Below are positions 4,835 to 62,495 of a stretch of 64,000 nt of DNA, one piece after another (position 1 is the stretch's first letter; every line of letters begins with the position of its first letter). Under the pieces are notes generated by a model. It worked only from the letters and a program-made list of their open reading frames with translations, was not told the origin of the DNA and did not search any database. The translations under genes were made by a program, and so were the position numbers. The stretch comes from Reyranella sp. (GTDB taxonomy: Bacteria > Pseudomonadota > Alphaproteobacteria > Reyranellales > Reyranellaceae), in NCBI RefSeq assembly GCF_050185545.1, contig NZ_JBFWZI010000007.1, positions 26,194-90,193 on the forward strand, given 5' to 3'.

Positions 4835-5074
4835 CCTCCTCAGCGCAGCTGGGGAGGTGTCGCCGTCATACGGCGACGGCGGGGTCGTGAATCATCCTCA
4901 AGTGGACCGCGGGCGTCTCGCCCGCTCATGATCAAGAGCATCATGAGCGGGCGAGACGCCCGCGGTCCGGAAGACCATGACCCCTTCGCCTGCCTGCGCG
5001 AAGCCGAAGCGGCTTCGCTTCGGCGAAGGCAGGTCCGCGAAGACGCGGACACCTCCCCGGCAGAGCCGGGGAGG
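4835..5074. repeat. Nested REP/REPIN mosaic, copy 1 (A-shell + B doublet + extra hairpin)
   Basis: Outer inverted arms CCTCC..GGGGAGGTGTCGCCGTC..GGGGTC / CATGACCCC..GACACCTCCCC..GGGGAGG. Perfect 29-bp inverted repeat at 4904-4932/4940-4968. Confidence 0.9.
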
Positions 5075-5083
5075 AGAGCGGAA

Positions 5084-5518
5084 TCACGCGCTGGTGCCGG
5101 TGACCTCCTGGATCTTCGGCCACATCTTCTCCTTCCAGCCGGCGTTGCCGGTGACGGCGAGGATGATCTTGTCGTTCTGGGCCAGGATGAAGCGCGGCGT
5201 GGCGTCGGGACGTGACTTGCCTTCGTCACTTGCCAGGAAAGCGGCCATCACCCATTTCGCGTCGGCGGGCCATGACTCTTCCTTTGTGATTAGGGACTGG
5301 TTGGCTGGGTAGACGACTTTGTAGTCGAGTTTGTTGATCGCATCGGACTTCAGGAAGACGGGCTCGGACTGGGCGCGCCAGATCTTGCAGCCGCCTCAAA
5401 GCTCGTGGCCGACGAACACCAGTGTCGGTTTGCCCGCCTGGGCCAGCGCGACACCAGTCAATGACGATGCGGCGACCGTCGCAAGGCCTCCCATCATCAC
5501 GGATCGTCTGTTGAACAT
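5084..5518 (-). CDS. Candidate selenoprotein: Tat-exported thioredoxin-fold protein with UxxC (in-frame TGA at 5396-5398), 144 aa
   Basis: Readthrough translation: MFNRRSVMMGGLATVAASSLTGVALAQAGKPTLVFVGHEL-U-GGCKIWRAQSEPVFLKSDAINKLDYKVVYPANQSLITKEESWPADAKWVMAAFLASDEGKSRPDATPRFILAQNDKIILAVTGNAGWKEKMWPKIQEVTGTSA*. The frame stays open for 103 codons after TGA and contains a Trx-like cis-Pro strand (TPRFIL). Confidence 0.8.
5357..5395 (-). promoter_or_regulatory. Putative bacterial SECIS hairpin immediately 3' of the in-frame UGA
   Basis: mRNA after UGA: GGCGGCUGCAA GA(U)CUGG CGCGC CCAGUC CGAGCCCGUC. The upper stem starts after an 11-nt spacer, with a bulged U at +14 and a loop G at +20. Lower stem GGCGGCU/AGC(C)CGUC. 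Folded by eye only. Confidence 0.65.
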
Positions 5519-5616
5519 CTCCGTATGCTCCCGTGGATCCATTCCACGGGCGGAGTATGTCGGCAGGGAGGAGGGCGGTGAAGCTGGAGAGACCAGCCTC
5601 ACCGCCTTGTGACCAT

Positions 5617-60184: not shown

Positions 60185-60194
60185 GAGGTTGACG

Positions 60195-62357
60195 ATGTCG
60201 CGGGCCGCCAAGGTCGTCTCTGCGATCGCGGTCGATGATCTCACCGCTCGCCAGGCGCGCGCCGAGCACAAGCGCCTCAAGGCCGAGATCGCGCACCACG
60301 ACAAGCTCTATCACGAGCAGGACGCGCCGGAAATCTCCGACGCCGACTATGACCGGCTGCGCCAGCGGCTGAAAGCCATCGAGGAACGGCTGCCGGAGTT
60401 GGTCGACTCGACCAGCCCGACCCAGACGGTGGCGCCGACGCCGACCACGGCGTTCGCCAAGGTTCGACATGGACGGCCGATGCTGTCGCTCGACAACGCC
60501 TTCAGCGACGAGGAGCTGCAGGCCTTTCTCGATCGGGTGCGCCGCGGTCTCGAGCGCGAGACGGACCTGGCTGCCGATGCCGAGATCGCCTTCGCCTGCG
60601 AGCCCAAGATCGACGGTCTGTCGATCAGCCTGCGCTACGAGGACGGGGAATTCATCGTTGGTGCGACTCGTGGCGACGGCACGACCGGCGAGGACGTCAC
60701 GGCCAACCTGCGCACCGTCAAGGACATCCCGCATCGTCTGCGCGGCACGGCGCCGCGTGCGCTGGACGTGCGCGGAGAGATTTACATGGAACGCAAGGCG
60801 TTCCAGCAGATGAACGAGCGCCAGGAGGCGGCGGGCGAGAAGACCTTCGCCAACCCGCGCAACGCCGCGGCTGGATCGCTGCGTCAGCTCGACGCCGGGA
60901 TCACGGCGACCCGGCCGTTGCGGTTCTTCGCCTATGCCTGGGGTGAGGCCGAGCCACGTTCCTGGAAGACCCACAGCGCGTATCTCGGCCTGCTGAAGGA
61001 ATGGGGCTTCAAGGTGAATCCGCTGTCGCAGCTGTGTCGCACGGCCGACGAGGTTCGCGCGTTCTACCGCAGGATCGCCGTCGAGCGGCCGTCGCTGCCG
61101 TACGACATCGACGGCGTCGTCTACAAGGTCGATCGCATCGACTGGCAGGAAAGACTGGGCTTCGTCAGCCGCGCGCCGCGCTGGGCGATCGCCCACAAGT
61201 TTCCAGCCGAGCAGGCGCGCACGCGGCTGAACGGCATCCTGATCCAGGTCGGGCGCACCGGCGCGCTCACCCCGGTGGCCGACCTCGAGCCGGTCAATGT
61301 CGGCGGCGTCATGGTGGCGCGCGCCACCCTGCACAATGCCGACGAGATCGAGAGGCTCGACGTGCGTGTTGGCGACATGGTGATCGTGCAGCGCGCCGGC
61401 GACGTCATCCCTCAGGTGCTGGGCTACGTGCCGGAGGAGCGCCCGAAGAAGACTCACAAGTTCCATTTCCCAACCCATTGCCCGTGCCCGCTGCATACGG
61501 AGGTGCGCAGCGAGGAGGGCGGCGTCGTGCGGCGCTGCACGGGTGGGCTGGAATGCCCGTTCCAGCAGGTCGAGCGGCTGCGTCACTTCGTTTCACGCAA
61601 CTGCTTCGACATCGAGGGACTGGGCGGCACGCACATCGAGAATTTCTGGCGCGACGGGCTGTTGAAGATTCCCGGCGACATCTTCCGCCTGCCCGATCGC
61701 GTCGACGACATCCGCAGACGCGAGGGCTGGGGCGATCTGTCGGTGCGCAACCTGGTGGCGGCCATCGAGGCACGGCGCACCATCACCCTGGACAGGTTCA
61801 TCAATGCCATCGGCATTCCGCTGATCGGCGAGGCGACGGCCAAGATCCTGGCCCAGGAATACGGCGCGGCCGACGCCTGGCTGGCGGAAATGCTGCAGGC
61901 CGCCGCCGAGCGCACCAAGGCGCCGGAGCCGGCGAAGAAGGAGAAGGCCGCCACCGAGGTCGGGCCGAGCTACGGCCGGCTGTGCAACGTCGAGCAGATC
62001 GGCGTCACCACGGCCGACGCGATGTGCGCCTTCTTCGGCGAGGGCCATACGATCGAGATCATTCGCGATCTGCTGGGTCAGCTCACGGTGCAGCCGGTCG
62101 AACGCCGCGCCGTCGCGGCCGATGCCAAGCTGCGCGACAAGATCGTGGTGTTCACCGGCGAGCTGGCGTCGATGACCCGCGACGCGGCCAAGGCGCGCGC
62201 CGAGGAACTCGGCGCCAAGGTTACCGATTCGGTGTCGAAGAAGACCAGCCTCGTGGTCGTGGGCGAGAATGCCGGCTCCAAGGCGCGCAAGGCCGCCGAG
62301 CTCGGCATCCAGACCATGACTGAGGCCGAGTGGCTGGCATTCTCGGCCGGAAGCTGA
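60195..62357 (+). CDS. ligA: NAD-dependent DNA ligase
   Basis: [28 protein letters not shown], HhH region and C-terminal BRCT (SVSKKT). Confidence 0.97.
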
Positions 62358-62368
62358 CTTTCATGGTC

Positions 62369-62495
62369 ATCCGGACCGCGGGCGTCCCGCCCGCTCATGA
62401 TCATGAGCTTCATGAAGGCGCGTTCGGCAAGGGCGCGGCAGACCGCGCCCCTGCAGAGCCGCACCATGAGCGGGCGGGACGCCCGCGGTCCGGAT
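62369..62495. repeat. B doublet with an additional REP-like hairpin in its spacer
   Basis: Perfect 31-bp inverted repeat at 62369-62399/62465-62495; the spacer carries GGGCGCGG-caga-CCGCGCCC. Confidence 0.9.

Follow-up and report, generated by a model that had tools for sequence, protein, structure and literature searches.

Nested palindromic repeats of the REP/REPIN type in a Reyranella genome and their relation to RAYT genes

A 64,000-nucleotide stretch of the genome of a Reyranella species (the genome is designated G000, and the whole stretch, C7:26194-90193, is called the window below) carries intergenic palindromic repeats that lie one inside another. These sites are probably composites of several Reyranella families of repetitive extragenic palindromic (REP) sequences and of their inverted doublets (REPINs), which would be moved by REP-associated tyrosine transposases (RAYTs, Y1/HUH enzymes) and would nest at doublet centres bearing TCATG. 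The repeat modules occur independently of one another, nest in all orders and are strongly enriched in one another's centres; furthermore, they are polymorphic at orthologous sites and associated with RAYT genes in related genomes. The initial annotation of the window had described eight intergenic sites and a solitary arm of such modules, and all of them are present in the sequence, with minor corrections (Table 1). The G000 assembly comprises 7.98 Mb in 366 contigs with a GC content of 67%; it is about 97% complete, contigs shorter than 2.5 kb were dropped from it, and it contains many 10-N gaps. The closest relative is G012, with about 92% identity over coding flanks.

Results

Repeat families and arm structure

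All arms share one grammar: a GC-rich hairpin carries the tag GGAC or GGAG at its outer end and a foot, TCATG(A), at its inner end. The outer tag is GGAC in family B and GGAG in families C and A, and is thus not the canonical GTAG or CGTC. Two inverted arms form a doublet (REPIN), the centre of which is composed of 2-5 “nCATGA” units. The B arm reads GGACCGCGGGCGTC[C/T]CGCCCGC-TCATGA, mirrored on the other side, and the C arm reads CTGGGAGCGCGCCACTCCGATGGCGC-TCATG. The A shell possesses a CCTCCCC-loop-GGGGAGG hairpin, a variable second hairpin and GGAGGGGTCATG, again mirrored on the other side, with inner boundaries GGGGTCATG ... CATGACCCC following the second hairpin. The centres of empty A shells contain merely 1-4 “nCATGA” units (e.g., GGGGTCATGACTTATGACCCC), while those of B doublets are made of TCATGA-like units and fall into length classes of 11-13, 18-20, 24-25 and 30 nt. 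On the outside, the arms are bordered by a TCATGA-like unit or by its variant TCTTCC. CATGA/GAAGA linker units are present, and the order of the REPs is concentric, not tandem.

The 14-mer GACGCCCGCGGTCC was found 1046 times in the G000 genome, far above chance given the 0-1 matches of reversed-pattern controls. With up to three mismatches allowed, as in the B-arm counts of all genomes compared here, G000 contains about 980 B arms, 820 of which (84%) match one or the other of two masters exactly. The counts for C arms and A inner ends are about 650 and about 540, and 336 B doublets and roughly 150 complete A shells were recognized. Solo doublets number 155 for B and 95 for C, and about 30-45 A shells are empty; families E and F and an A' variant are found in the genome as well. 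The GCGAGCG/CGCTCGC subfamily of B, represented in the window by the site at 33320, is also present in G012, G016 and G075, so that at least this mirror-image change was inherited from a variant master and did not arise through local correction of one arm by the other. More than 90% of the doublets lie outside ORF-like regions.

The two arms of one doublet differ by 0.90 mismatches, compared with 1.34 for random arms, and are identical in 43% versus 25% of cases. Since they are more alike than random arms, the doublet can be regarded as the replicating unit. Across doublets, variant arm positions were mirrored in 111 and unmirrored in 297 cases. The repeats therefore show the typical features of REPs and REPINs, being short imperfect palindromes of high copy number that are extragenic, are tagged at one hairpin end by a conserved tetranucleotide, and form inverted doublets that fold into a long hairpin and act as a replicating unit. 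A literature search for Reyranella repeats turned up nothing relevant, and no Rfam family matched any of the repeats.

Undetermined bases total about 10 kb in G000, at least partly as 10-N runs, and at least one gap falls inside a repeat doublet with an 84-nt centre. In G012, contigs C130 and C36 (the ends of L072 and L073) both terminate within the same C-type palindromic doublet, which indicates that the repeats break short-read assemblies and that copy counts from metagenome-assembled genomes may be underestimates.

Nesting of the families in one another's centres

Strict parsing of G000 (outer family first) yielded 51 cases of A>B, 17 of A>C, 8 of C>B, 4 of B>C, 3 of C>A and 2 of B>B, together with one triple nesting, A>B>C, at C96:18367. 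Random placement would put about 0.5-2 B doublets into A centres (about 0.5 with an intergenic space that was over-estimated), whereas at least 51 were observed. The idea put forward in the initial annotation, that REP families insert preferentially into the centres of one another's palindromes, is supported by these nesting counts and by the polymorphism at orthologous sites described below, from which insertion itself is inferred. TCATGA is over-represented 4.3-fold in G000, and about 860 of its 2835 sites (about 30%) lie inside repeat clusters; targeting of the motif would thus by itself account for a nested share of B doublets of about the observed size (15-23%).

Orthologous sites in relatives

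Comparison with relatives revealed empty shells, exchanged cores and one clean empty site, so that an absence of presence/absence polymorphism, named beforehand as an outcome that would speak against independent insertion, was not encountered. At site 4835, G012 has the same A shell with neither the B core nor the D hairpin, and another hairpin lies within the loop of its second hairpin. At site 10424, the G012 shell encloses a different core, and a C doublet is inserted in its right arm between the second and first hairpins. Only a degenerate A1 hairpin is present in G012 at site 15310, and F-type repeats occupy its site 27376. At site 21539, both G012 and G058 carry another A-like shell (CCTCTCCCCC..GGGGGAGAGG) containing no B. 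At site 32250 (32255-32448), G012 keeps only a 22-nt C remnant, GCCAGCGCTGGGAGCGCGCCAC, and G017 only a degenerate A1 hairpin. Site 33320 is empty in G012, where the flanking genes overlap (...GTCGCCATCAGCG...); in this empty/filled pair, a CATG repeat fits only if the ancestral site differed from that of G012. MITEs derived from DDE transposases would have terminal inverted repeats matching an insertion sequence and a target-site duplication of constant length; no matching insertion sequence turned up in the scan of arm-flanked genes in G000, beyond which none was sought.

We further compared 18 additional solo B or C sites with G012. Several of them are common to both genomes, which places the origin of B and C before the split, and several hold another family in G012. 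At shared sites, the G000 copy is nearer to the master than the G012 copy. In one case (G000 C46:34615 versus L097), an F doublet is nested in the centre of a shared C doublet in G012 only. These comparisons mark the intergenic spots as hot spots of insertion, deletion and replacement.

RAYT genes in congeners

RAYT-like genes, detected as PF01797 matches, are present in 44 of 81 Reyranella genomes. In G092, a protein of 187 aa scores 94 bits (cut-off 80) against NCBIfam NF047646, “REP-associated tyrosine transposase”. Its gene (L078 1420-1983) is flanked by C-type REPs and corresponds in position to site 27376, as it immediately follows the ortholog of the window ORF that ends at 27364. Relative to G092, the window has at this position the E-family composite (about 27365-27590) and about 2.2 kb of extra genes, and synteny resumes at about 29826.

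Both flanks were available for 24 of the examined RAYT loci, and at each of these the gene lies between inverted REPs of a single grammar, (TCTTCC)GGA[C/G]CGC-stem-TCC(A)-stem-TCATG; two others were not judged, namely L080, which is cut at the 5' side and has no 3' REP, and the weak L081, which has no recognisable REPs. Exact B arms bound the RAYT genes of G058 (L102) and G048 (L107), while in G075 (L114) and G022 (L119) the 5' B arm is exact or one base off and the 3' arm is a B-like variant; all four genes lie at one conserved locus. C-type arms bound RAYT genes of G058, G048, G075, G093 and G092 (the loci L101, L108, L113 and L116 and, in G092, L078), and other RAYT paralogues are bounded by further REP variants. 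The RAYT stop codon falls within the TCATGA foot at some loci. Given that RAYT genes are flanked by B and C-type arms in congeners, B and C are bona fide REP/REPIN families, and from their positions they appear to be the cognate REPs of RAYT paralogues.

Repeat sites of the window

Within the window, A shells are present at five sites, around B doublets at four and around a C doublet at one (Table 1). The B doublet attributed to four A shells is intact at 4835, 15310 and 21539, but at 10424 its left arm is degenerate. The element at 21539-21711 is a single long palindrome, with its spacers GTGTTTT/AAAACAC included. The other site descriptions of the initial annotation agree with the sequence: the C doublet inside an A shell near 32313, the shell-less B doublets at 33320 and 62369, the hairpin enclosed at the latter, and the degenerate A ends of the element at 27376/27417, which are A1-like; this element was assigned to a separate family, E.

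The E family reads GGGATGACGG ... GGGACCTTTCTTG, and the inner hairpins differ between its two arms; it is widespread in the clade, with dozens of copies at 85-90% identity in G012 and G058. An RNase P RNA gene of bacterial class A (Rfam RF00010, 299 bits) lies at 37832-38217 of the window, and the lone A1-type hairpin is located about 90 nt downstream of it.

Table 1 Repeat sites of the window and syntenic RAYT loci of G000 (window coordinates unless a contig is given)
Feature	Position	Remarks
A shell + B doublet	4835-5074; B 4904-4968	TCT-loop variant of B
D hairpin	~4989-5036	right arm of the 4835 site, between right CATGACCCC and second hairpin
A shell + half-degenerate B core	10424-10610	intact right arm 10527-10548, left arm degenerate
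A shell + B doublet	15310-15506; B 15370-15433	
A shell + B doublet	21539-21711; B 21600-21654	
E-family doublet	27376-27590; core 27416-27537	ends only degenerate, A1-like
A shell + C doublet	32255-32448; C 32314-32392	
Solo B doublet, GCGAGCG subfamily	33320-33399; doublet 33331-33388	between the stop of one gene and the start of the next
Lone A1-type hairpin CCTCCCCCGATTACGGGGGAG	38306-38326	3' of RNase P RNA
Solo B doublet	62369-62495; arms 62373-62394 and 62470-62491	50-nt hairpin inserted in TCATGA centre
B-RAYT locus of G000	C71	empty
C-RAYT locus of G000	C11:60617-60708	plain C doublet with the usual family spacer (…CTTGTCGATCACAGATCC…)
Other syntenic RAYT loci of G000		a B doublet, an A' shell or an A>B composite

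Search for a RAYT in G000 and evidence against the proposed RAYT-driven nesting

A number of results weigh against the proposal that RAYTs moved the repeats of G000 into one another's centres. The absence of a RAYT from the window, already noted in the initial annotation, extends to the whole G000 assembly: neither a Pfam search nor tblastn with RAYT sequences found one, and a profile (a custom hidden Markov model) of 20 Reyranella RAYTs reached no better E-value than 5.3 in a search of all G000 ORFs with 40 aa or more. A cognate RAYT in the same genome, a further feature of REP/REPIN systems, was hence not found in this incomplete assembly. In G000, the syntenic RAYT loci are internal to contigs and either empty or occupied by REPINs alone; the B-RAYT locus of G012, G016 and G011 is empty as well. 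In contrast to B and C, no RAYT bounded by A-type arms was seen among the examined congener loci; likewise, a RAYT-flanking locus was found for neither D nor E. TCATG flanks both sides in just 43 of 154 solo B doublets. None of the 18 additional orthologous sites is cleanly empty in G012, most of them holding the same or another family. Site 33320 was the only clean empty site found, and the many orthologous sites filled in both genomes or by other families point partly to old occupancy and turnover instead of fresh insertion.

Two of the G000 loci and one rejected match deserve description. The doublet at the C-RAYT locus has the usual spacer of its family, which hints that the common spacer of C REPINs may be derived from a collapsed RAYT locus. 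At C217:2150-2900, about 750-820 bp stand in place of the RAYT carried by G011 and G068; one ORF there looks BrnT-like (DUF497) by eye, and together with a partner ORF it apparently forms a toxin-antitoxin pair. A weak tblastn match of RAYT at C100 proved to be an ABC-F ATPase.

Discussion

Proposed mechanism

We consider RAYT-driven nesting at TCATG-bearing centres to be the probable origin of the composites. Doublets would move as single-stranded hairpins through a RAYT and would insert at TCATG-type sites. The TCATG(A) foot of each arm faces the doublet centre, so that every centre offers a target; the centre of a resident doublet would both hold TCATG sites and be exposed at the apex of a long hairpin. 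Incoming doublets, whatever their family, would then land preferentially in old centres, and repetition of this process would build the Russian-doll arrangement, while deletion within palindromes and replacement by other families would produce the observed turnover. We infer that a RAYT moved the G000 copies and that TCATG was the target, and the same status applies to the account of the uniformity of the copies in a RAYT-less assembly.

Alternative explanations

The uniformity of the G000 copies suggests an alternative, which is that the repeats spread or were homogenised in G000 by means other than a RAYT, either through an unrecognised enzyme or through recombination or gene conversion, for example via shared CATG linkers. 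The assembly contains neither a RAYT nor a RAYT fragment, and the canonical loci are empty. Nevertheless, the B-arm count of G000 is 3-7 times that of the RAYT-bearing genomes G058 (263 arms), G048 (286) and G075 (129); another RAYT-bearing genome, G022, has 13. Exact masters make up only 5% of the 152 B arms of G012, in which no RAYT was found either, against 84% in G000. The B-arm population of G012 thus looks like a decaying one, whereas that of G000 looks active or homogenised, and the smaller distance of G000 copies from the master at shared orthologous sites points in the same direction. On the other hand, no candidate enzyme gene lies between inverted arms: the few convergent pairs enclose ordinary genes only, such as a DsbA-like isomerase at C131, which were rejected as candidates. 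In addition, given the completeness of about 97%, the dropped short contigs and the 10-N gaps, the genome may possess a RAYT that the assembly fails to show. We therefore judge this alternative unlikely. In its strictest form, that REPIN families were amplified or held at master purity in a genome that had lost every RAYT, it seems to us a little less likely still; the RAYT-independent route would be another enzyme or copy-to-copy conversion through shared TCATGA linkers, and, if it existed, the self-targeted nesting would be its footprint.

A second alternative is that one ancestral composite of A, C and B spread as a whole and that the solo modules are deletion products, with no insertion involved. 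Partial loss does occur, as seen in B cores collapsed to a single hairpin within A shells (C53:19264 and C114:12833) and in the 22-nt C remnant of G012 at site 32250. However, opposite orders coexist (A>C with C>A, and B>C with C>B), and B and C doublets are mostly solo in unique DNA. Each module is found separately across the genome and nested in all orders, contrary to what a single composite would require. Moreover, the same shell encloses different cores in two genomes, one of which alone has an F doublet within a C doublet, and B and C each bound their own RAYT in relatives. This explanation is very improbable.

Lastly, the repeats could be structural elements selected by the host (terminators, mRNA stabilisers or protein-binding sites like those of bacterial interspersed mosaic elements, BIMEs), their stacking reflecting selection for stable 3'-end hairpins. 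Their extragenic position, the 21% of A1 hairpin sides that follow a stop codon by no more than 40 nt and the occupation of the same intergenic spots by different families in different genomes might suggest this. It is nevertheless very improbable, because functional selection acts on retention only and would account neither for the hundreds of identical copies nor for the exact nesting at centres. Furthermore, the repeats have no Rfam match, and A1 does not serve as a ribosome-binding site. The latter role had been considered for the A1 hairpin (outer consensus GGGGAGGAGAATGAG) and was rejected, since a gene-like start follows 3.3% of its sides compared with 8.8% for all GGAGG.

Relation to known repeat systems

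REPINs and their RAYTs are known from Pseudomonas fluorescens SBW25 and E. coli (Bertels & Rainey 2011, PMC3116915; bioRxiv 10.1101/2021.07.10.451892). Like those REPINs, the Reyranella repeats are tagged short hairpins whose inverted doublets fold into one long hairpin; they are extragenic and present in hundreds of copies, and show a master-sequence structure; each family bounds a single-copy RAYT at a conserved locus, here in congeners, and the population decays where the RAYT is absent, as in G012. Unlike the REPIN tag GTAG, the Reyranella tags are GGAC/GGAG combined with a TCATG foot. Nesting is common, with at least 85 strict cases; it is reciprocal between at least three families and goes up to three levels deep, and the largest and purest population is found in an assembly that holds no RAYT at all, all of which differs from REPINs.

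REP dimers located within a second, unrelated palindrome have been described as GTAG-23 of T. roseum and CGTC-1 of H. neapolitanus (Di Nocera et al. 2013, PMC3733652). Their shell-plus-core anatomy resembles that of the Reyranella sites, but their shell partner is fixed, whereas the shells of Reyranella are repeat doublets in their own right, which can be empty and can themselves take the place of a core (C>A, B>C). The BIMEs of E. coli are likewise REP mosaics in alternating orientation with short conserved linkers; they are side-by-side arrays of one REP superfamily, while the arrangement in Reyranella is concentric and mixes families. Elements of the IS200/IS605 group, such as IS608, share with the present system a Y1/HUH enzyme, hairpin ends and insertion beside a short specific sequence with no duplication. 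By analogy with IS608 as a model, TCAT(G) at the foot of the hairpin may be the motif that is cleaved or targeted, although the Reyranella elements are palindromic doublets with no internal transposase and their mechanism is a proposed one.

Taken together, the Reyranella repeats belong to the REP/REPIN-RAYT system, with non-canonical tags. New aspects are how extensive the nesting is, that it is reciprocal among families, and that the richest genome apparently lacks a RAYT.

Biological significance

According to the usual view, REPINs are long-lived, mostly solitary replicators that rely on a single RAYT. In G000, several related families appear to use one another's centres as landing sites, and often do so, which would provide a simple rule for building intergenic mosaics: the target motif forms part of the element itself. 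Within this one genus, RAYT-bearing genomes have 13-290 B arms, the RAYT-less G012 has a decayed population, and the RAYT-less G000 assembly has a near-uniform one of about 980 arms; this contrast bears on whether REPIN populations truly depend on their own RAYT.

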